64,000 bases of DNA, taken from assembly GCA_963758525.1 (NCBI GenBank), contig CAVWVQ010000003.1, forward strand, positions 3,712,001 through 3,776,000, written 5' to 3'. Source of the DNA: an uncultured Phycisphaerales bacterium. Lineage in GTDB: Bacteria; Planctomycetota; Phycisphaerae; Tepidisphaerales; Tepidisphaeraceae. Shown here piece by piece: positions 45,311 through 55,414 of this stretch (its first letter is position 1; each line of letters starts with the position of its first letter). Both the position numbers and the translations under genes were made by a program. The notes under the pieces were generated by a model that ran no database searches, was not told the DNA's origin, and worked only from the letters and a program-made list of their open reading frames with translations.

Positions 45311-45994
45311 TCAGAATTTTTCACGCGGGCACGGCAGCGCAATCACCGAATCTCCCGCGATCGCGAAGATGCGGCGGGCCTGCTGTGCCGGCATGTGGCA
45401 TCCACCGGTAAACGAACCAAACGCGGGCAATATTCCCACCTGTTCGTCAAAGACAAAGCACGGGACGCGCACGCTGGAGCCGTCAAAATCGCGCAACGCG
45501 CAGACGGGATGGATGTGGCCGCCCAACAGGGGCCGGCAATTGGGAATGTCGGGGAAATGCGAAAGGAACAATCCGTCGACCTCCAGAGGACCGGCCACTT
45601 CCTCAAACTTCCATTCGTCAGGGCAGGCGCCCGCGCTGCGGTCATGATTGCCGCGAATCAGCAGCATCTCGATATTGCCATGCGATCGCCGCCACTGGCA
45701 AATGGCTTCCATGATCTGCGGATGGCGCCCGCTGCGTGCATGGAGAAAGTCGCCAAGGATGATCATCCGGCGGGCCCCGGTGAGTGCCAGCACGCGCGAA
45801 AGACGCTCCAGATCTTTGCGGCTGCTCCCGGCGGGCACCGGAACTCCCGCGCTGCGGAAAGCCGCGCCTTTGCCCAGATGAACGTCCGTGACGATCACGC
45901 TTTGCCGCGCCGGCCACCAGATCGCGGGACCGGCGAGCAGCTCAAAGCGGTGCGACGCAAAATCCACCGCGATTCTCGACTTCTCTCGGATCAT
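45311..45994 (-). CDS. pdeM: Ligase-associated DNA damage response endonuclease (metallophosphoesterase)
   Basis: DVHLGK, LGDFLH, GNHD, GHIHP, PAFGSFTGG. Confidence 0.9.
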   Translation of the reverse strand: MIREKSRIAVDFASHRFELLAGPAIWWPARQSVIVTDVHLGKGAAFRSAGVPVPAGSSRKDLERLSRVLALTGARRMIILGDFLHARSGRHPQIMEAICQWRRSHGNIEMLLIRGNHDRSAGACPDEWKFEEVAGPLEVDGLFLSHFPDIPNCRPLLGGHIHPVCALRDFDGSSVRVPCFVFDEQVGILPAFGSFTGGCHMPAQQARRIFAIAGDSVIALPCPREKF

Positions 45995-48562
45995 CCGTTG
46001 AATCCTGTTTCATCGCCGCCGCCTCCAGCTCGCGGGCCAGGCGCTCAATCCTCTGCGTCGGGTTCTCCGATCGCAACTGCTGCGATGCGATGCGCTCGGC
46101 AAACAGCGGAAACGCCAGCGGAGTCACCTTCGCGGGCGAAGTCATGACGAGTTGCTCAGCAGCCAGTTGCAGCAGGGCCGACTGAAGACGGGTGAATTCG
46201 AGTTGACGCGTCAGCACTTCCTGCCGAGCCTGAATCAGCAGAAGATTCTCCGGGTCGAATTCCTTGAAGACATCATAGAACAACCCGCTGGAGGCTTGCA
46301 GCGCCCTGACGCTTCGCGGCGCGCCGGGCCGGGTGGGAACCAGCAGCCCCGCGATGCGCGCGATCTCGCGGAAGTGCCGCCGCGCCGATTCGCCCGTGTT
46401 GACGCATTCGGAAACATCCTCCAGCAGATTCGCCGGCGAGAGAACCTCGCGCCAATCCGGCTCTGATTCTGCCAGGGGCCGCTGCGAAAGCAGTTCGAGT
46501 CCGTAATCGTTAAATGTCGCGGTGATGGGAGAAAGACGGCGGCGCGCAAAACGATGCGTGATCAGCGCCGCAAGTCCTTCGTGAACAAGACGTCCCTGAA
46601 ACGGATACAAAAAGTGATGGTGCCCGTCGCGGCTGGTGACGGATTCGACCAGAAGCTGTGCCCGTCGCGGAATGACCGACCATCGCTGCTGCAGTTCAAG
46701 GATGGGGCGAACGTGCTGCATTTCCGCGTCGACAAAGCGATGCTCGGCTGCTTCGTCGAGCCGAACGCGAACCGACTCGGCCAGGCTTCCCGACATAGCC
46801 ATCTTCCCGCCCAACCATTTCGGGACGGTCCCGCGCTTTGACTTGGAGGGTTTCACCTGCAGCGTCATCTCGTGCATCCGGACCGTTTGCAGCGTTCGGC
46901 CCGCGAAGTTGAACAGGTCGCCGGGGCGCAGCCTGCTGGCAAAAGATTCCTCCACGCTGCCCAGATATTTCCCACGGACGAACTTCACGTTGACCGCGCC
47001 GTCGGCGGTGATCGTCCCGATATTCATGCGATGCATGCGCGCCAGTTGCGGCGATGCAGCGACCCACTTGCCATTTTCCTCAATGATCCGAGCGAAACGC
47101 GGGTAGGCCGCCAGGCTCTGCCCGCCGCGTCTGGCAAAGTCCATGACCCACTGCCAGTGCAGATCAGTCAGAGCCGCAAAAGCGTTCGTCGATCGCACCT
47201 CGGCAAGAAGCTCGCGGTCATCAAATCCGCCGCCCGCGGCCACTGTCACCACATGTTGCGCCAGAACATCCAGCGCCAGCGTTACCGGCTCGCGCAGTTC
47301 GACCGCGCGGCGATCCACCGCGCGTCGCACCGCTGAAAACTCAACCAGCTCAAACGCCTGTGTCGGCACGCAAACAATCTTGCTCGTCGCGCCCGGCTGA
47401 TGTCCGCTGCGCCCGGCCCGCTGAATCGCGCGGGCGATATTCTTGGGGCTTCCAATCTGAATGACCTGATCAACCGGCCAGAAATCCACGCCCAGATCGA
47501 GGCTCGAAGTGCAGACCACCGCGCGCAGTTGTCCTTCACGCAGCATCTGCTCGACGCTCGATCGAAGCTTGCGGTCCAGCGAGCCATGGTGCAACGCGAT
47601 CTTTCCCAGCCAGTCCGGCGCGCCTGCATCACTGCGCGGAACCACATCTCGCTCTGCGACCTTGTGTTGGTAAAGACCAGCGTGCTGCCGGCCGACTCGA
47701 TCAACTGGATCACAGGTTCGACCATCCGCGTCCCAAGGTGGCCGGCCCAGGGAAACCGCTCGATCCGCGCTGGGAGAACGCTGTCGACAAAGATCGGCTT
47801 TGTGTCTGGCGCAATAATGGATCTGGCGTTTGGGGCTGCGACAGGGCCGACCAGCGCCGCAAGCGCTTCGTGTCGATTGGCGATCGTGGCGCTCAAACCC
47901 CAGGTGCGCGTCGCCGGCGAAAAGCGGCGCAGCCTCGCCAGCGCCAGCTCGGCTTGCACGCCGCGTTTGGTGCCGATCAGTTCGTGCCATTCATCGACGA
48001 TCGCACAGCGCAGCGTTTGCAGTCGTGCCGGCGAATCGTCGTACGAAAGCAGCAATGAAGCGCTTTCCGGCGTAGTGACGAGAATCGTCGGAAGCCGCTC
48101 CTTCTGACGCCGGCGGAGCGCGGCAGATGTATCTGATGTCCGCAGCTCCACGCTCCAGGGAAGTTGCAGTCCCTCCACCGCCAATTGCAATGCGCCAACC
48201 GTGTCAGCGGCAAGCGCCCGCAGCGGCGTGATCCAGATCATTGTGAGCGGCGCGGTGCGCGGCACTCTACGCCGACTTCTCGCGTCTCCTCTTTCCCCCT
48301 CCCCCGGAGTACCAGGGGAGGGGATTTGAGTGCCAGCCGCTCTCAGCGTCGACTCGGAGGATGACGCGTCGAGGAACTCGATCATCGGCCCCAGCGCCGC
48401 GGCCAATGTTTTGCCAATGCCCGTCGGCGCTTGAATCAATCCGTCGCGCCCGGCGAGATATTCATTCCAAGTGTCCCGCTGAAAATCGAAGGGCACCCTG
48501 CCTTGCGCAGCAAACCAGTGCTCGACCTGCGCAGTTCCAGAGACGGCCGCCCGCTTGCTCAT
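45942..48562 (-). CDS. Ligase-associated Lhr-like DEXH helicase; frameshift near 47620
   Basis: PTGIGKT, TPLRALA, DEWH, GLSAT, HHGSLD, TSSLDLGVD, QRAGRSGH. Confidence 0.92.
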
Positions 48563-50175
48563 CGCGCCTCCACGGTCTGCAGTAACGCAAACACCGATTG
48601 CAGCGTGTCAGCCTCTCGCGGCTTCTTGTCCTGACGCATGCGGAGGATTCGCGGGAATCGCAACGCAACACCCGACTTGTGCCGGTCGGATCGACGGATC
48701 GCTTCAAAGCCGATCTCGAAGACGAGTCGGGGCTCGATGATATGCACAGGTCCGAATCGGGCGGTGGTGTATCTTCGCGCGAAGCGATCGACACGGACGA
48801 TCTCGTCATCGGTGAGCCCGCTGTAGGCCTTGGCGACAGTGACCAGCTCATCCCCGGACCAAACGCCAAATGAATAATCGGTCAGCAGCCCCGCCCGCCG
48901 GCCGCGTCCAGGCTCGGCGGCGATGAGGACGGCGTCGAGCGTGAACGGTTCAATCTTCAATTTCCACCACAACCCGGCCGGCCGGCCCGCGCGATACGTC
49001 GAGTCGGCGCGTTTCAGCATCACACCTTCAACGCCACGCTCGCGCGACGCGTCGATCAGCGCTTGAAGCTCATCCCATTCCTGGAAATCGATGATCGGAG
49101 ACAGCGCAATGCACGAATCGCCGGGCACCGCCGCGAGGCGCGCTGCCAGCGCACCGCGCCGGAATTCGAGCGGATCTCGGCGAAGATCGCGGCTGTCGAG
49201 CTCAAGGAGATCGAAGGCCACGAATCGAACCGGGACGTCAGGCCAGAAGCTCGGCTCGTGCTGCTTGCGATTGAGGCGCGTCTGCAGATCAGAAAAAGCC
49301 ATCGGCCGATTGTCAGCAGCGTTCCATCCGACAATCTCTCCATCAATCACAATCCCGTCAGGCAGGTCGGATGCGCACTGAAGAATTTCGGGAAACGCTC
49401 CCCCGATCATTTCATCGCCGCGCGACCAGAGCGCGGTCTTGCCTTGTCGGCGGACGATCTGGGCGCGAATGCCGTCCCATTTCCACTCGATGAGCCAATC
49501 CGTCCGCGACCCCAGCGTTTGAGGCGCGGCATCCAGGGCATGGGCGAGCATGAAGGGATATGGCAGACACGCATCGCCGCAGGGCTCGGCATCGGCGGGG
49601 GAGAGCAGCCGCGCGAACGAGTGCTCGCCGGGCGTCCAGTTTCCCGCCAGCCGATGGGCGATCACCGCCGGCTCCACTTCCGCTAGCTCGGCGATTGCGC
49701 GAACGAGAAGCTGCTTTGAAACTCCGACGCGGAAGCTCCCTCCCAGCAGCTTGTGAAAGACCAGCCGCTGATCGACATCCAGCCGTAGCCAGGCTTGCGC
49801 CATGGTTTCCTGCTGTGCGGACGGTGACATGTGCGGCAGGGGGCGGACGGTCCTTTCGATCAGCTCATGCAGCGGCGGCGGCGATTCGCCTTCGGCTGCG
49901 CTGCCGGTGAGGAGCGCAAGTGTCTCCGAAAGATCGCCGACGAGCTGATGGCACTCGTCGACGAGCCAGGGGGGATGGCCGCTCGCGTCTGCGGCCCACC
50001 GCCGCAGCAATTTGCCCGCAATCCGCCTGCCGATCTTTCGGCCCGAAAGCAGGAACACCGCCCAGGCCGCATCGGGGGCGGGAGCGCTGCGGAAGTAAGC
50101 GACCAGTGCCTCGACCTTGTCCGCGGTGCGTGTGGTCTGGTCCAACGCAAGGTACAGATCCGTAAAGCGCTTCAC
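48559..50175 (-). CDS. ATP-dependent DNA ligase
   Basis: EWKWDGIR adenylation motif, DGEI, EGVMLK, LRFPR. Confidence 0.95.
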   Translation of the reverse strand: MKRFTDLYLALDQTTRTADKVEALVAYFRSAPAPDAAWAVFLLSGRKIGRRIAGKLLRRWAADASGHPPWLVDECHQLVGDLSETLALLTGSAAEGESPPPLHELIERTVRPLPHMSPSAQQETMAQAWLRLDVDQRLVFHKLLGGSFRVGVSKQLLVRAIAELAEVEPAVIAHRLAGNWTPGEHSFARLLSPADAEPCGDACLPYPFMLAHALDAAPQTLGSRTDWLIEWKWDGIRAQIVRRQGKTALWSRGDEMIGGAFPEILQCASDLPDGIVIDGEIVGWNAADNRPMAFSDLQTRLNRKQHEPSFWPDVPVRFVAFDLLELDSRDLRRDPLEFRRGALAARLAAVPGDSCIALSPIIDFQEWDELQALIDASRERGVEGVMLKRADSTYRAGRPAGLWWKLKIEPFTLDAVLIAAEPGRGRRAGLLTDYSFGVWSGDELVTVAKAYSGLTDDEIVRVDRFARRYTTARFGPVHIIEPRLVFEIGFEAIRRSDRHKSGVALRFPRILRMRQDKKPREADTLQSVFALLQTVEAR

Positions 50176-51248
50176 GAATCTTCCCTCCGCGCAAATTCCA
50201 ACTCGGCGCCGGCCGGCAACGCTGCATCTTCTTCGCCCGAAGCGGGATCGACTTCTCCCTCTTCACCCTTGAAGCGTGTTTTGAAGGCAGCGGCGTCCAT
50301 CCCGCGCTCCCGCAGCAGGCGCACGAGCGGATCGGTGAAGCCGTGCGTGGCGATGACATGCTCCGCGCCGGTTTCCGCGATCGTCGAAAGCAGTTGCGGA
50401 AAGTCCGCATGATCCGAAAGCACAAATCCGCGATCTGCGCCTCCCCGCCGACGGAACCCGCGCACCTGCATCCAGCCGGATGCGACGCCCGTCGCAACCG
50501 GCGCAAATTTCCGCAGCCAGACCGAATGGAGCGCCGAGGGCGGCGCGATGACCATGGCACGGCCGCGATGCACTTTGGCGGCCTCCGCGCTCGCGTAGTG
50601 CGTCGGCGGCAGCTCGACGCCGGTTTGACGATAGGCGTTGGTGACCGCATCGACCGCGCCATGCAGGAGGATCGGGCCGATCGACGGATCCAGCCCGCCC
50701 AGCAGTCGCTCCGCTTTGCCGAGTGAGTAAGCGAACAGCGCGCTGGTCCGCCCGGCGGCGATATTATCCCGCCACCATTGGTTGACATCCTCCATCACGA
50801 GCTTCGGGTCGTTCCAATGGAAAATCGGCAGGCCGAACGTGCACTCGGTGATGAACGTGTGACAGCGAACCAGCTCAAAGCCCCGGCAGGTGACATCCGC
50901 ATGGCGTTTGTAGTCGCCGGTAAAAACCCAGACCTCGCCGCGATGCTCGATACGCACCTGCGCCGAGCCGAGGACATGGCCCGCGGGGTGGAGCGAGACA
51001 TGCACGCCGTTGATATCAATAACTTGCTGATAATGCAGCGCGTCGACGACGATGTCGCTGCCGAGACGCTGGCGAAGCAGTGCCGCGCCGTCGGCGGGGC
51101 AGAGGTATCGCTGCGAGCCGCGGCGAGCGTGGTCGGAGTGCGCGTGGGTGACGATGTTGCGTGGGACGTCGCCCCAGGCGTCTATGTAAAAATCGCCGGC
51201 CGAGCAGAAGAGTCCTCGACCGGTGTTGACGATCAGCGGTTCCGACAT
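50172..51248 (-). CDS. Ligase-associated DNA damage response exonuclease (MBL fold)
   Basis: THAHSDH, AGHVLGSA, TECTFGLP, SDHAD, THG. Confidence 0.93.
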   Translation of the reverse strand: MSEPLIVNTGRGLFCSAGDFYIDAWGDVPRNIVTHAHSDHARRGSQRYLCPADGAALLRQRLGSDIVVDALHYQQVIDINGVHVSLHPAGHVLGSAQVRIEHRGEVWVFTGDYKRHADVTCRGFELVRCHTFITECTFGLPIFHWNDPKLVMEDVNQWWRDNIAAGRTSALFAYSLGKAERLLGGLDPSIGPILLHGAVDAVTNAYRQTGVELPPTHYASAEAAKVHRGRAMVIAPPSALHSVWLRKFAPVATGVASGWMQVRGFRRRGGADRGFVLSDHADFPQLLSTIAETGAEHVIATHGFTDPLVRLLRERGMDAAAFKTRFKGEEGEVDPASGEEDAALPAGAELEFARREDS

Positions 51249-51466: not shown

Positions 51467-51659
51467 GCAGGACGCGGCGTTGGTCGTGCATCGGTGCAGG
51501 CGTCGGCCCTCAACAGAAACCGGAGAGTTCTATATGTAGGGCGGGATTCATCCCGCCGCTTCTTTTGTCTACGGCAAAATCGTGGCGGGATGAATCCCGC
51601 CCTACATTCGAGAATGTTCTTCACGCAAAGATTTTCTTCTTGATTTTATAATTTTTCAT

Positions 51660-51685
51660 GCAACAATTCAGGTCTAATCGGCGTT
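51660..51685 (+). promoter_or_regulatory. Candidate ECF-sigma promoter of the tRNA array
   Basis: GCAAC-N17-CGTT at the end of an AT-rich stretch (51630-51660). Confidence 0.45.
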
Positions 51686-51703
51686 ATGTCGATGGAGAGA
51701 CCT

Positions 51704-51787
51704 ATGCGGCACTTGAGTTCATCTAAGTTTAACGGTTGCCAACCAGAGCGACTCGCATCAAACCGAGCCGAACTGGTCAACTTATAA
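51704..51787 (+). CDS. Putative 27-aa leader peptide MRHLSSSKFNGCQPERLASNRAELVNL
   Basis: GGAGAG RBS; rich in A/T-ending codons; stop codon overlaps the first of several alternative hairpins. Confidence 0.5.
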   Translation: MRHLSSSKFNGCQPERLASNRAELVNL

Positions 51788-51856
51788 CTCCTCGCCGCCG
51801 CCGGCCGGGAGTTCTTCCCGGTCGAAAGTAATATTTCATAGAACCGGGAAGCAATT

Positions 51857-51945
51857 GGGCGTTCAGCTCATTTTGCTGGAACACCTCTCTTACAAAGAGG
51901 AGGTCCGTGATTTGAGCGGCCGTTGGCCCGGGAATCTCGCGGTTC
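51857..51945 (+). pseudogene. tRNA-Val(TAC)-like sequence with disrupted T arm and 3' end
   Basis: GGGCGTT, D arm, and CCTCT-CTTACAA-AGAGG anticodon arm intact; no TTCRA loop or complementary acceptor strand. Confidence 0.6.
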
Positions 51946-52010
51946 CGAGGCGTATTGCGCGGCCAGGTGATTGTATTCACTATGGACGCATTACAAAGGC
52001 AGCGGTCCGC

Positions 52011-52081
52011 GCACTCGTAGCTCAATGCAGAGTCGCCGGCTCTTAACCGGTCGGGTGCAGGTTCAAATCCTGCCGGGTGCA
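52011..52081 (+). tRNA. tRNA-Lys(CTT)
   Basis: GCACTCG/CGGGTGC acceptor, GCCGG-CTCTTAA-CCGGT, TTCAAAT loop; no CCA. Confidence 0.88.
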
Positions 52082-52102
52082 TGAATTGAGAAACTATGGA
52101 AC

Positions 52103-52176
52103 GGTTCAGTAGCCCAACTGGCAGAGGCGCCTGACTCAGAATCAGGATGGTGCAGGTTCGAATCCTGCCTGGACCA
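52103..52176 (+). tRNA. tRNA-Leu(CAG) with short variable loop
   Basis: CCTGA-CTCAGAA-TCAGG, 5-nt variable region, A73. Confidence 0.85.
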
Positions 52177-52190
52177 TGAAGCGGTACAAC

Positions 52191-52263
52191 GTCGCGGCAG
52201 CTCGATTGGACGAGCACGGCCCTCCGAAGGCCATGGCTGAAGGTTCGAATCCTTCCCGTGACA
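52191..52263 (+). tRNA. tRNA-Arg(CCG)
   Basis: GTCGCGG/CCGTGAC acceptor, loop CTCCGAA, GAAGG-TTCGAAT-CCTTC. Confidence 0.88.
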
Positions 52264-52277
52264 TGGAAAAGAACATT

Positions 52278-52349
52278 GGGCCCGTCGTCCAACGGTAAGA
52301 CTCCTGGCCTGCAACCAGGAAATGAGGGTTCAACTCCCTCCGGGGTCCA
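52278..52349 (+). tRNA. tRNA-Ala(TGC), atypical (C33; one extra G in the 3' acceptor strand)
   Basis: CCTGG-CCTGCAA-CCAGG; G3:U70 and A73 if one G is bulged. Confidence 0.7.
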
Positions 52350-52352
52350 TGA

Positions 52353-52428
52353 GTGACATGCGGCATTGTTCTCCTGCGGCGGTCTCAAGAACCGCGCAGG
52401 TGTGGGTTCGACTCCCACCCGTGGCACT
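52353..52428 (+). ncRNA. tRNA-like RNA lacking a D arm, with extended anticodon arm (loop CTCAAGA)
   Basis: Perfect T arm GTGGG-TTCGACT-CCCAC; CCTGC(G)GCGGT/ACCGC-GCAGG stem; imperfect GTGACATG/CGTGGCAC closing stem. Confidence 0.65.
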
Positions 52429-52442
52429 GAAAGGAGTTTATC

Positions 52443-52757
52443 ATGTTCGTAAACAACTCGGCCAGACCACACAAGGAGACCATGTATCTGATGTGTCAGC
52501 TCTCCAAGCCGGTGGAGGGGGGCGTTGCCCGGATGACGTCCTGGATCCGCCAGGCCGTCGCCAAACCCGGGGCGGTGTTGGGCCGTTTGGAAGACACAGA
52601 GACGGGTGTCTTCGAGACAGGTTGGCAAGTTGACTCAGCCAGTGGACCCGCTCTCCCGGAGTCGCTTTTGTTAAAGCGGTCTCACAAGAAGGTGTTCGCA
52701 TCCATCAAAGACGAAGAGGCGGCTCGAGAACATGTACGTCAAAGCAAGAATCGCTAA
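52443..52757 (+). CDS. Hypothetical 104-aa protein embedded in the tRNA array
   Basis: Strong AAGGAG RBS; pattern C-x-L...TSWI...A-x-x-G...GW-x-V. Confidence 0.75.
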   Translation: MFVNNSARPHKETMYLMCQLSKPVEGGVARMTSWIRQAVAKPGAVLGRLEDTETGVFETGWQVDSASGPALPESLLLKRSHKKVFASIKDEEAAREHVRQSKNR

Positions 52758-52839
52758 ATCACATTGATCAGGCGGTTGCACCAGAGCGACGTGGATCAGG
52801 AGCGTCGGCAACGATGGAGGGTTTGTCATGTGATCTCCT

Positions 52840-52922
52840 GGAGGGTTGGCCGAATGGTATGGCACCCGTCTCGAAAACGGGCAAACCGAAAGGTGATGGG
52901 GGTTCGAATCCCTCACCCTCCT
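52840..52922 (+). tRNA. tRNA-Ser(CGA)
   Basis: GGAGGGT/ACCCTCC acceptor, CCCGT-CTCGAAA-ACGGG, long variable arm. Confidence 0.92.
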
Positions 52923-52968
52923 CTGACTCGGTGGTCGAGCAGGAACGGTCGAGCACTGGAAAAGATCC

Positions 52969-53053
52969 GGAGGGTTGGCGGAGCGGTCTATCGCGTCGCG
53001 TTGCTAGCGCGAAAAGCACTCGTGCTTCGAAGGTTCGAATCCTTCACCCTCCT
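52969..53053 (+). tRNA. tRNA-Ser(GCT)
   Basis: GGAGGGT/ACCCTCC acceptor, TCGCG-TTGCTAG-CGCGA, variable arm AAGCAC/GTGCTT. Confidence 0.92.
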
Positions 53054-53130
53054 TTTAGGGTTCAGGGTGTCAGGGTTCAGGGTTCAGTGAGGCGTTGTTG
53101 CCGCTGGTGCCCAACCTGACGCCAGGAGTC

Positions 53131-53142
53131 GTTCTTTGACAA
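53131..53142 (+). promoter_or_regulatory. boxA-like antitermination element
   Basis: GTTCTTTGACAA resembles rrn boxA (GCTCTTTAACAA). Confidence 0.6.
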
Positions 53143-53283
53143 TTCGATGCATCAAATGCAGGTGCGGAATTGCAAATTGAGGACTGCAAATTGCAAATTG
53201 CAAATTGTGGGGATGGGGAGGCTCCACGAATTTGCGATGGGCTTGAGCGTCGGCAGCACGCAATACTGCTCTCCGCAGCACTT

Positions 53284-53355
53284 GTGGACTTAGCTCAGCG
53301 GTAGAGCGGAGGCTTGAAGAGCCTCGCGTCCCTGGTTCAATCCCAGGAGTCCACA
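53284..53355 (+). tRNA. tRNA-Phe(GAA)
   Basis: GTGGACT/AGTCCAC acceptor, GAGGC-TTGAAGA-GCCTC. Confidence 0.92.
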
Positions 53356-53364
53356 TTCGGAGGT

Positions 53365-53480
53365 TTAGGGTTCCGGGAGGGTTCAGGGTTCAGGGTTCAG
53401 GGTGTCAGGGTGGAGGAACGGAAAATGTCTTTTTGCTGAACCCTGAACCCTGAACCCTGAACCCTAAATCCTGAACCCTA
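53365..53480. repeat. Inverted blocks of the heptamer GGGTTCA/TGAACCC
   Basis: Tandem heptamers; same unit at 10848-10875, 32624-32655 and 53057-53087. Confidence 0.9.
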
Positions 53481-53484
53481 AGAA

Positions 53485-53556
53485 GCAGTGATAACTCAGT
53501 CGGCAGAGTGCCGGTCTTCCAAACCGGAGACGTGGGTTCGATTCCCCCTCACTGCA
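53485..53556 (+). tRNA. tRNA-Gly(TCC)
   Basis: GCAGTGA/TCACTGC acceptor, CCGGT-CTTCCAA-ACCGG; one T-stem mismatch; A73. Confidence 0.88.
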
Positions 53557-53638
53557 ATGCGCGGCGCACAATCGCCGCTATTAGCGGGTGTCCGAAGGGC
53601 ACCGTCACGCGAGCAAGTGCATGCGGACATGCACGCTT

Positions 53639-53709
53639 CTGGGGATAGTTCAACGGCAGAACGTCCGGATGTGGCCCGGAATGCGGAGGTTCAACTCCTT
53701 CTCCCCGGA
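53639..53709 (+). tRNA. tRNA-His(GTG) without genomic G-1/C73
   Basis: CTGGGGA/TCCCCGG acceptor, TCCGG-ATGTGGC-CCGGA; T at -1 and A at 73. Confidence 0.82.
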
Positions 53710-53728
53710 CTGATTCCAAACGTGAGAC

Positions 53729-53801
53729 TCAGGGATAGTTCAATTGGCAGAACGTCCGACTCTGACTCGGAAAGTTGAAGGTTCGAGTCCTTCTCCCTGG
53801 G
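53729..53801 (+). tRNA. tRNA-Gln(CTG)
   Basis: TCAGGGA/TCCCTGG acceptor, TCCGA-CTCTGAC-TCGGA. Confidence 0.9.
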
Positions 53802-53802
53802 C

Positions 53803-53874
53803 TGAGTCGTAGTTCAACTGGTAGCAATGCCGGTCTTTGAAGCCGGAGATCGTGGTTCAAATCCACGCGGCTCA
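53803..53874 (+). tRNA. tRNA-Gln(TTG)
   Basis: TGAGTCG/CGGCTCA acceptor, CCGGT-CTTTGAA-GCCGG. Confidence 0.88.
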
Positions 53875-53950
53875 ATCCGCGCCGGCGCGAGAAGGCAGCG
53901 GAGAAGAAATGGAACAAGAGGAAAGGTGGTTCATCGGATCCCGCGTCCAT

Positions 53951-54023
53951 ACCCATGTAGCTCAACTGGTAGAGTGCGCGACTGTTAATCGCGTCGTTGG
54001 TGGTTCGAATCCACCCGTGGGTG
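53951..54023 (+). tRNA. tRNA-Asn(GTT)
   Basis: ACCCATG/CGTGGGT acceptor, CGCGA-CTGTTAA-TCGCG, G73. Confidence 0.92.
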
Positions 54024-54147
54024 CTGGCTTCGCCAGAGCAGGTGAACCGTTGAACGGGCGAACAGGAGACGGAAAAAACTTGGCCTCGTCTCCTGATCCG
54101 CTGCTCACCTTTCTCCTGTTCTCGTTCGCGATGCATCGCGCAGCGCC

Positions 54148-54220
54148 GCTCCCGTCGTCCAACGGACAGGATGCCCGGCCTTCAACCGGATGATGATGGG
54201 TTCGATTCCCTCCGGGAGCA
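54148..54220 (+). tRNA. tRNA-Glu(TTC), atypical (C33; bulge in T stem)
   Basis: GCTCCCG/CGGGAGC acceptor, loop CCTTCAA, TTCGATT loop. Confidence 0.78.
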
Positions 54221-54317
54221 TTACTCTTTGTGGCGCAGGCTTCGAGCCTGCTCCGCTCGGCAGGCTGGAAGCCTGCACCACAAAATAGGAAGGGTGATCG
54301 GGCGCCTGATTGTTGTT

Positions 54318-54391
54318 CAGCGTGTGGCGCAGTTTGGCAGCGCACGTGCCTCGGGCGCACGGGGTCGAAGGTTCGAATCCTTCCACGCTGA
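54318..54391 (+). tRNA. tRNA-Pro(CGG)
   Basis: CAGCGTG/CACGCTG acceptor, CGTGC-CTCGGGC-GCACG, A73. Confidence 0.93.
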
Positions 54392-54403
54392 TTGAAACAG
54401 ATT

Positions 54404-54477
54404 GAGGAGGTGGCCGAGCGGTTCAAGGCCTGGGCCTGCAAAGCCCGTGTTCGCTGGTTCGAATCCAGTCCTCCTTT
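54404..54477 (+). tRNA. tRNA-Cys(GCA)
   Basis: GAGGAGG/CCTCCTT acceptor, TGGGC-CTGCAAA-GCCCG, U73. Confidence 0.9.
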
Positions 54478-54580
54478 TCCTGATGTTGCAATTATTCACA
54501 AACCTGGCATTCCTCGAAGGGATATATATAAGAGACGAGCAAAGGCTCGTCCCAATGAGTGTGTACTGCACGGAGGTGCA

Positions 54581-54802
54581 ATGATGTGGCAGCCCCAGCT
54601 GAATGATCGCGTACGATTGCTCCACGATGTCCCGGATCTGCTGTTGCACAGCGGCGACGTGGGTGTGGTAAAGAGCGTTTGGTTTGCGCCCCAAACGGCG
54701 TACGAAGTCGAATTCGAGCAGCCGAAGTCCGCTTATCGGGTTCGCAAAATTCTGCAGCCCGCGGAAGTCGAGCCTGACGCGGCGCCCCGTCAACAAAACT
54801 GA
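54581..54802 (+). CDS. DUF4926-like small protein
   Basis: GGAGG RBS; DRVRLLHDVP...GDVGVV...AYEVEF. Confidence 0.75.
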   Translation: MMWQPQLNDRVRLLHDVPDLLLHSGDVGVVKSVWFAPQTAYEVEFEQPKSAYRVRKILQPAEVEPDAAPRQQN

Positions 54803-54952: not shown

Positions 54953-55414
54953 TCACCACCAGTAATTGAACATCAGCTCGCGCGACCATGCGGGCTGCGT
55001 CACCGCGCCTCTGGGCAAAAACTCCTCCATCACCGGCTTGATGTCCACCACCGGCGACCCGTCGATCGCGTCGAGTCCCGCGACTGTCAGCGTTTTTCCC
55101 TTGAGGCTCACGACCCGCGCTACGCAGGTTCCCAGTCGATTTGGCCGGTCTTTACCGCGCTGCACAAAGATGCCCACCCGCGGCCATTGTTCGTTACCGC
55201 GCGGGTGCCGGGCGCCACGCACGATGTCGCTCTCGTCGACGCGGTGAAAATGATAGATGACTTCAACGTGCGAAAAAGCCTCGATGCCGTCCAGCGCTTC
55301 GTCGCCGAACGCGTCTGACAGCTCGATCTTCGACACGACATCGCCCCAGAGATCGTCGCTCAAGTCCGTCCGTGTGCTGCTGACGTAGCCAATCGGCTCG
55401 ACTGCGATCATCAT
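54953..55414 (-). CDS. TsaA/TrmO (YaeB)-like SAM-binding tRNA methyltransferase domain
   Basis: PIGYV, FSHV, GIF...RPNRLG, GLDAIDGSPVVDIKP. Confidence 0.88.
   Translation of the reverse strand: MMIAVEPIGYVSSTRTDLSDDLWGDVVSKIELSDAFGDEALDGIEAFSHVEVIYHFHRVDESDIVRGARHPRGNEQWPRVGIFVQRGKDRPNRLGTCVARVVSLKGKTLTVAGLDAIDGSPVVDIKPVMEEFLPRGAVTQPAWSRELMFNYWW

Follow-up and report, generated by a model that had tools for sequence, protein, structure and literature searches.

A spare tRNA array in a Tepidisphaeraceae genome is headed by a leader reading frame that matches its tRNAs and probably acts as an attenuator

How is a tRNA array controlled when each of its anticodons is already served by other genes of the same genome? 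To our knowledge, the regulation of individual bacterial tRNA genes is largely open, and the sole worked-out array of the kind called L-array uses a protein repressor. The question is raised by a 64,000-nucleotide stretch (here referred to as the window) from an uncultured, soil-type Phycisphaerales bacterium of the family Tepidisphaeraceae (assembly GCA_963758525.1, contig CAVWVQ010000003.1, positions 3,712,001 to 3,776,000), in which 15 intact co-oriented tRNA genes are packed into 2.5 kb at 52011–54477 (+), as ARAGORN and Rfam agree. A preliminary description, made from the letters alone, had counted the same 15 genes and regarded them as a self-contained back-up module with an RNA-level control circuit. 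We found that the array stands behind a leader with a short open reading frame (ORF) whose amino acids follow the tRNAs encoded downstream (Table 1).

The dispersed housekeeping set comprises 49 tRNA genes with 44 anticodons and contains all 15 anticodons of the array, so the array tRNAs are not the genome's only copies and the module is redundant, as had been supposed. None of the 15 array genes encodes CCA, which the preliminary description had noted, but neither does any of the 49 housekeeping genes; because the trait is genome-wide, it is uninformative about the array, and we rejected it as an array trait. Two sister clusters of spare tRNA genes were found in the genome, one at C3:44047-43672 with Thr, Tyr and Trp, and the other at C3:3600000-3600529 with Ile (by Rfam), Arg, Arg, Lys, Asp and Met, followed by rtcB. 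The 23 tRNAs called by ARAGORN in the three clusters have no anticodon in common, and all of them duplicate housekeeping anticodons (0/23 absent from the 49 genes). Syntenic arrays are present in relatives, where single-piece arrays contain 25–29 tRNA genes, up to 29 of them in one fixed order, and the three clusters combined approximately rebuild such an array. The best scores of the cluster tRNAs are 57–72% against housekeeping genes and 74–99% against the array slots of relatives. A spare (supernumerary) tRNA operon is thereby divided in this genome into three complementary pieces, of which the window array is one, and the array is self-contained only in part. Since the clusters share no anticodon and jointly give a near-complete array, we infer that they arose by duplication and then reciprocal loss.

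The leader contains a Shine-Dalgarno sequence, an ORF of 27 codons and four RNA strands predicted to form a two-state switch. The preliminary description was right about a structured leader, for the window fold has a z of -4.4 and none of 200 shuffles was as stable. The 19-nt core of the switch (at 51803) occurs exactly three times in the 6.47 Mb genome with two mismatches allowed, and the three copies precede the three spare tRNA clusters, one each. A scan of a genome collection gave 52 loci and another 17 were fetched or came from the source genome, making 69 in total; after 19 loci without strand 1 and a sense tRNA had been dropped and seven duplicates removed, 43 leaders were kept. A two-mismatch pattern search of 301 genomes of the class returned mostly noise, and its 30 loci were left out. 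The leader element heads about 60 loci, nearly all in the same family, and the titled records among the leader loci belong to Tepidisphaeraceae, Tepidisphaerales or Phycisphaerales with one exception. A covariance model matched 47 of the 141 genomes of the family, and in 150 other genomes of the phylum it gave only four weak matches, none with an upstream ORF (uORF) or a tRNA. No Rfam family matched the leader, either in the window or in four relatives.

The layout of the leader is conserved far beyond chance. A Shine-Dalgarno-led ORF that stops 0–3 nt before strand 1 is present in 39 of the 43 leaders, versus 0.6 expected from shuffles; in two of the other four the stop lies 7 nt further on, and all 19 further leaders found by the covariance model possess such an ORF, one of them without a clear Shine-Dalgarno sequence. 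The sequence of the leader peptide is not conserved. tRNA genes lie less than 4 kb away from 40 of the 43 leaders. Moreover, RtcB, an ATP-dependent RNA ligase, a copy of EF-Tu, and SPFH, ThiF and VWA proteins are encoded under the same leader (20 and 15 proteins scanned out of 145 listed). The extra EF-Tu gene lies in or just after the leader-controlled unit (L053:4732-5928, and L160 and L170 by N-terminal sequence only), and in L048, L079, L080, L098 and L175, where few or no tRNAs are present, the leader is followed by a small unnamed ORF family. In viral sequences, the eight core matches (L180-L187) represent one phage's ordinary terminator, which has the same 2:3 hairpin sequence and a perfect U-tract at a gene end, without strand 1 or tRNA.

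Table 1. Features of the array and its leader, in window positions.
Feature	Position	Strand	Remarks
sigma70-like promoter, predicted	51640..51667	+	-35 TTGATT, 16-nt spacer, extended TG, -10 AACAAT
5' hairpin directly before Shine-Dalgarno	51678..51692	+	loop = CGTT read earlier as ECF -10
Shine-Dalgarno (51694-51698) and 27-codon leader ORF (51704-51787)	51694..51787	+	
two-state RNA switch, predicted	51786..51851	+	states 1:2 + 3:4 or 2:3
switch strand 1 (includes leader stop codon)	51786..51796	+	
switch strand 2	51803..51813	+	
switch strand 3, then A/U-rich tract	51814..51824	+	
switch strand 4	51843..51851	+	
decayed tRNA-Val(UAC), first 'mimic'	51857..51929	+	anticodon arm intact, D and T arms lost
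tRNA-Lys(CUU), Leu(CAG, short variable arm), Arg(CCG), Ala(UGC)	52011..52348	+	ARAGORN, Rfam
decayed tRNA-Leu(CAA), second 'mimic'	52354..52426	+	5' quarter replaced
cargo ORF, 104 aa, small beta protein	52429..52757 (ORF 52443-52757)	+	Shine-Dalgarno, homologues
likely remnant of Ser mini-ORF start (Shine-Dalgarno, ATG then stop)	52816..52833	+	from synteny
tRNA-Ser(CGA), Ser(GCU)	52840..53053	+	ARAGORN, Rfam
internal rrn-type boxA	53131..53142	+	12-nt consensus-type motif in mid-array spacer
tRNA-Phe(GAA), Gly(UCC), His(GUG; Gln-derived body), Gln(CUG), Gln(UUG), Asn(GUU), Glu(UUC), Pro(CGG), Cys(GCA)	53283..54477	+	
inverted heptamer-repeat element	53362..53480		others near 53057-53086, 53168-53209, 54228-54283
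hairpin after array	54532..54553		T-tract on minus strand only
DUF4926 ORF	54581..54802	+	may or may not be transcribed with the array

The amino acids of the leaders track the tRNAs that follow them. In the window, all 26 of 26 codons come from the array's own set (13 array amino acids plus Val, whose gene is decayed here), and the whole set is covered; T, W, Y, I, D and internal M have no codon in it (chance about 0.001), and these six missing amino acids are those served only by the sister clusters. The leader of the Thr/Tyr/Trp cluster devotes 11 of 28 codons to those three amino acids, and that of the Ile/Arg/Lys/Asp/Met cluster 11 of 28 to its five. Where the array is near-complete, leaders use 18.3 different amino acids, compared with 13.9–14.4 expected, and 11 of 11 are above expectation. 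Across the 23 reduced arrays that were seen in full, 46% of the codons in the leader correspond to a tRNA that the array has kept, versus 35 ± 1.5% after permutation (p < 5e-5), and the own leader ranks first of 44 in nine of the 23. The result was replicated in eight previously unused arrays (p = 0.0065); the pooled 31 reduced arrays, dereplicated to 26 clusters by merging similar peptides, give z 7.6–8.3, and p is 1e-4 when the source genome is left out. These statistics rest on permutation and on dereplication by peptide similarity. In addition, 18 of the 20 amino acids are commoner in leaders when their tRNA is present, and clusters that contain only Gln tRNAs have leaders in which Gln takes up 9 of 28 and 10 of 20 codons.

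The boxA-like site of the preliminary description was also confirmed, and is likewise conserved far beyond chance. The same motif is present in 13 of 20 spacers after tRNA-Ser(GCU); among 43 loci, 15 were matched, 14 of them in the same slot, where 0.1–0.7 were expected. The motif also lies about 520 nt upstream of the source genome's 16S gene, so that the array and the rrn operon carry the same boxA in untranslated stable-RNA transcripts, with the difference that here it is located mid-array after tRNA-Ser(GCU) and not in the leader. Rho is present, with two Rho-like genes (C3:4358004 and C3:3994036), one of them above the family cut-off.

Leader-peptide attenuators such as trpL, hisL, the multivalent thrL and ilvL control amino-acid operons, and the present leader resembles them in its Shine-Dalgarno-led ORF, its four strands with exclusive pairings and its control codons that fit the function. 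It differs in that up to 20 amino acids would be sensed and the output is tRNA, not enzymes. We consider it probable that the leader is a multivalent ribosome-timing attenuator, which lets transcription into the tRNA genes when leader amino acids are decoded slowly. RNA polymerase would first make hairpin 1:2. A ribosome reaching the stop codon in time would cover strand 1, 2:3 would form before the A/U-rich tract, and transcription would end by weak intrinsic or Rho-dependent termination. If a leader codon is slow, owing to an uncharged or cleaved tRNA or to an antibiotic, 1:2 would persist, 3:4 would lock it and hide pyrimidine-rich stretches, and the polymerase would read through; the mid-array boxA is predicted to renew NusB/NusE-type antitermination over the untranslated RNA. 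Because the stop codon precedes strand 1, unlike in trpL-type attenuators, the stall position would be irrelevant; with every leader codon able to trigger the same response, the leader would act as an amino-acid census. It would be re-tuned when an array copy loses tRNA genes, and the matching of sensed amino acids to supplied tRNAs would make the circuit a negative feedback.

Folding predictions are consistent with this attenuator. All 43 free RNAs were predicted to adopt the 1:2 + 3:4 state, and masking of strand 1 gave 2:3 in 42 of the 43 nascent RNAs; the base of 2:3 covaries, with 10 two-sided cells, a number reached in 2 of 500 shuffles. A U-rich window follows 2:3 by a few bases (mean 4.7 of 8, versus 2.9 after strand 4), beginning mostly 7–14 nt past the core and not flush with the stem. 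Helix 1:2 itself was rejected as a U-tract terminator, because the U's downstream of this helix are paired with the stop codon and differ among the new leaders.

Several results weigh against the attenuator. Directly after 2:3 there is no canonical U-tract (2.3 U on average among the 8 nt that follow), so the off state is what we infer; the terminator type and the polarity of the switch are likewise putative. Helices 1:2 and 3:4 have only one-sided changes and no two-sided covariation in the 43-row alignment, and the invariance of the core and strand 4 is a circular argument, because the search pattern included both. At equilibrium 2:3 beats 1:2 in 31 of 43 truncated ribosome-free RNAs, so the model needs kinetics. 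The match between leader and array is absent in several arrays of one or two tRNAs (L048, L097, L106, L170, L172), and it holds for the amino acid, not for the isoacceptor codon (152 versus 159 and 160 versus 156 expected); codon-level matching was therefore discarded as giving no signal. Finally, three of the 43 leaders and four of the 19 further ones head no tRNA gene.

The same strands could be read with the opposite polarity, in which 3:4 is the off state and 2:3 the antiterminator (trp numbering) and the array would be expressed during fast translation of the leader. Such a switch would be an RNA-level substitute for stringent control, adding tRNA in rich conditions. The strand order fits the textbook 1:2 / 2:3 / 3:4 scheme, strand 4 lies beyond the U-rich tract and would be unneeded by an intrinsic 2:3 terminator, and no RelA/SpoT domain was found in the source genome, which is 90.9% complete. 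We nevertheless regard this polarity as unlikely: strand 4 is not followed by a U-tract, repair genes (RtcB, RNA ligase) are under the same leader, translational stress induces the L-array with rtcB in Anabaena (PMC8421152), and the geometry of the Arg mini-ORF of relatives (see below) suggests that a stall means on. Activation by slow decoding is favoured because a ribosome at the stop codon sets 2:3, the more terminator-like state, and because of the repair genes that share the leader. The switch might otherwise set the fate of the precursor RNA, with 1:2 + 3:4 protecting the 5' end or presenting it for processing and 2:3 exposing it to nucleases. Since the product of the array is RNA, its stability is a usable control point; in addition, neither state has a canonical terminator, strand 4 is kept in all leaders and the internal mini-ORFs of relatives are also predicted to act at the folding level. 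The regular U-rich window after 2:3 speaks for termination, and the conserved boxA implies that termination truly threatens this transcript, which makes control by precursor fate improbable in our opinion.

The remaining alternative places control mainly at the promoter, through an extracytoplasmic function (ECF) sigma factor or, as in Anabaena, a repressor, and regards the leader ORF and the helices as passengers of a decaying duplicated element. The ECF-type promoter of the preliminary description did not hold up as a conserved feature and was rejected: its pattern AAC-N15-18-CGT fits 8 of 39 leaders, versus 35 of 39 with a TTG hexamer at -35. In these 39 leaders a spacer of 16–18 nt, often a TG, and an (A/T)ATAAT-like -10 complete a sigma70-like layout, mostly 35–38 nt upstream of the leader start codon (score 13.7 versus 11.9 for shuffles), and in the window transcription is predicted to start near 51674. 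An overlapping ECF promoter may exist, as a relaxed G/C-A-A-Y ... CGT pair at 16–17 nt spacing is found in 16 of 39 leaders, and the -10 begins with A in 25 of 39 leaders, whereas 26 of 32 promoters of housekeeping tRNA genes have T there; the window array also contains two decayed genes, as a passenger element would allow. However, CGTT is present in only 21 of 39 leaders, as the loop of the 5' hairpin, the central stem pair of which is G-C in 13, A-U in 8 and G-U in 5, with 13 off the pattern. The published TrcR-type repeat motif was found in none of 43 leaders, and a passenger ORF would not track the tRNA content. We thus hold control at the promoter to be very improbable, and the leader attenuator remains the preferred reading.

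Arrays of this kind are known, and the control circuit appears undescribed. According to PMC8421152, L-arrays consist of many co-oriented, closely spaced, non-periodic tRNA genes, are listed for Planctomycetes, are supernumerary (isodecoders, not new anticodons), and are patchy with a variable insertion site; that of Anabaena PCC 7120, the trn operon, is normally silent and is induced by translational stress via promoter repeats. PMC10272220 names TrcR as its repressor, and tandem 9-nt direct repeats cover the -10 and the start site. The present array is similar in its long, co-oriented, non-periodic and redundant gene set, its rtcB link, its sigma70-type promoter, its patchiness (47 of 141 family genomes) and its upstream neighbours, which differ in nearly all 39 loci. 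It differs from Anabaena in having a leader-ORF switch where TrcR acts on direct repeats there (repeat in 0/43 here), in the absence of an HNH gene among 39 upstream ORFs, and in being split into three complementary units. By the tRNA array unit definition given in PMC4758250 (at least 20 tRNA genes at a density of at least 2 per kb), the window falls short with 15 intact and two decayed genes, and several relatives qualify. In the whiB7 uORF attenuator (bioRxiv 2023.06.02.543512), the amino-acid content of the uORF sets what is sensed. The whiB7/wblC uORF is likewise variable in sequence and contains most amino acids, with slow translation predicted to cause read-through and composition serving as the signal; here, by comparison, tRNA genes are controlled directly, composition follows each copy's tRNA list, the ORFs have 27–35 codons, no canonical U-tract terminator is present, and the RNA sequence is unrelated, as judged without alignment. 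A literature search covering few subscription journals returned no report of leader-ORF control of tRNA genes or of their maturation.

The arrays of relatives also contain mini-ORFs before single tRNA genes. A Shine-Dalgarno-led mini-ORF precedes tRNA-Arg(UCU) in 18 of 19 arrays, typically with AGA/AGG codons and then AAA CGG TGC, the last six bases of which (CGGTGC) are complementary to the 5' end of tRNA-Arg(UCU). This anti-acceptor strand is predicted to pair with the leader with a probability of 0.94, versus 0.49 in shuffles, and a ribosome stalled on AGA would cover it, judging from the usual footprint length. The source genome's own Arg(UCU) cluster retains the module (C3:3600150-3600202, L016), as do 17 other arrays, and its exact pattern was not found in a sample of 400 other genomes of the phylum or in viral contigs. 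Before tRNA-Ser(CGA), a Shine-Dalgarno-led ORF is present in 18 of 20 arrays, with 111 of 227 codons for Ser, and usually reads into the tRNA; the stop often lies in the D arm of the tRNA gene (L049, L058, L091 and others). Anti-acceptor pairing for Ser barely exceeds the shuffles (0.71 versus 0.63). Other tRNA slots have at most four such mini-ORFs each, and the anti-acceptor counts for Ser(GCU) and Lys(UUU) were discarded, because their source is the 3' end of the tRNA located just before. The window's cargo ORF occupies the start site of the Ser module, of which a start-stop remnant is all that survives.

We tentatively suggest, at slightly less than even confidence, a two-tier protein-free feedback on tRNA supply in Tepidisphaeraceae, made up of the operon-wide census attenuator and single-gene mini-ORF switches. 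The attenuator would be rewritten whenever an array gains or loses tRNA genes, and at the single-gene tier a ribosome stalled on AGA/AGG (or Ser) codons would mask the anti-acceptor, so that this tRNA folds and matures. If true, the gating of a single tRNA's maturation by translation would be a novel type of control.

In the proposed circuit, translation itself would serve as the sensor, and nature has supplied a control experiment in the form of dozens of array copies that differ in their tRNA lists, each with a leader tuned to its own list. The attenuator predicts that starvation for Thr, Tyr or Trp should induce one sister cluster, the window array staying off. It suggests how a lineage without a detected RelA/SpoT domain adjusts its tRNA supply, and how damage to tRNAs might bring spare tRNAs and RNA ligases into use; the leader would be a compact, programmable amino-acid sensor.

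The two aberrant tRNA-like RNAs of the preliminary description are present as segments, and proved to be decayed genes in syntenic slots. The Val(UAC) copy matches the Val slot with an nhmmer E of 1.5e-6, and in the relative L110 the gene is intact with the same anticodon arm; the 3' 51 nt of the Leu(CAA) copy are 96% identical to the intact Leu(CAA) of L011, and L110 has a Leu(CAA) gene that is also decayed, but differently. Functional tRNA mimics were rejected, since the same slots hold intact genes in relatives and the decay differs in L110.

Some intact tRNA genes are unusual as well. The array tRNA-His(GUG) (53639-53710) combines the body of a tRNA-Gln(CUG) (74% to the Gln slot) with a His anticodon loop; the His slot is outside its top three matches, it is placed beside Gln and not in the His slot, and it has A73. 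L110 (2073-2150) has the same chimera, which is either a recruited His tRNA or a His-to-Gln misreader. The array tRNA-Leu genes (CAG, GAG, CAA) are 73–77 nt long without a long variable arm (Leu(CAG) of the window at 52103-52176), and those of the housekeeping set are 82–85 nt with a long variable arm. Four odd tRNA genes lie outside the three clusters (C3:539433, C3:765290, C3:890237, C3:4473167): a housekeeping tRNA-His with A73 and without G-1, a damaged tandem tRNA-Asn copy, an unusual second tRNA-Cys and a solitary fourth CAU tRNA.

The 104-aa ORF is real, with a Shine-Dalgarno sequence and true homologues, and occupies the Shine-Dalgarno/ATG position where the Ser-rich mini-ORF of relatives starts. 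Its family has 12 close and 471 distant representatives, and 7 of 14 metagenome loci that encode a homologue also have tRNA genes by ARAGORN. No Pfam, NCBIfam or PHROG family, no Atlas match and no PDB match by Foldseek was found for it; the best VIA Z is 4.4, and the fold matches are only two uncharacterised phage proteins. Upstream of the homologue in L111, L116 and L117 lie sequences that resemble tRNAs and contain T-arm and D-arm motifs but are not called by ARAGORN.

A 17–19 nt direct repeat lies within the leader ORF (51734-51752) and after the cargo ORF (52774-52790), and nowhere else in the genome. The long spacer hairpins are dispersed genome-wide repeats (99, 20 and 31 matches), and the inverted heptamer-repeat elements are outside the control circuit. 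The hairpin after the array has its T-tract on the minus strand only, and so does not define a 3' end on the plus strand. A gene for a TrmO-domain tRNA methyltransferase, 54953-55414 (-), converges on the 3' end of the array. Divergent from the array, a ligase-associated DNA damage response cluster occupies 45311-51248 (-), with an exonuclease, an ATP ligase, a DEXH helicase (in two frames, split near 47950) and PdeM.

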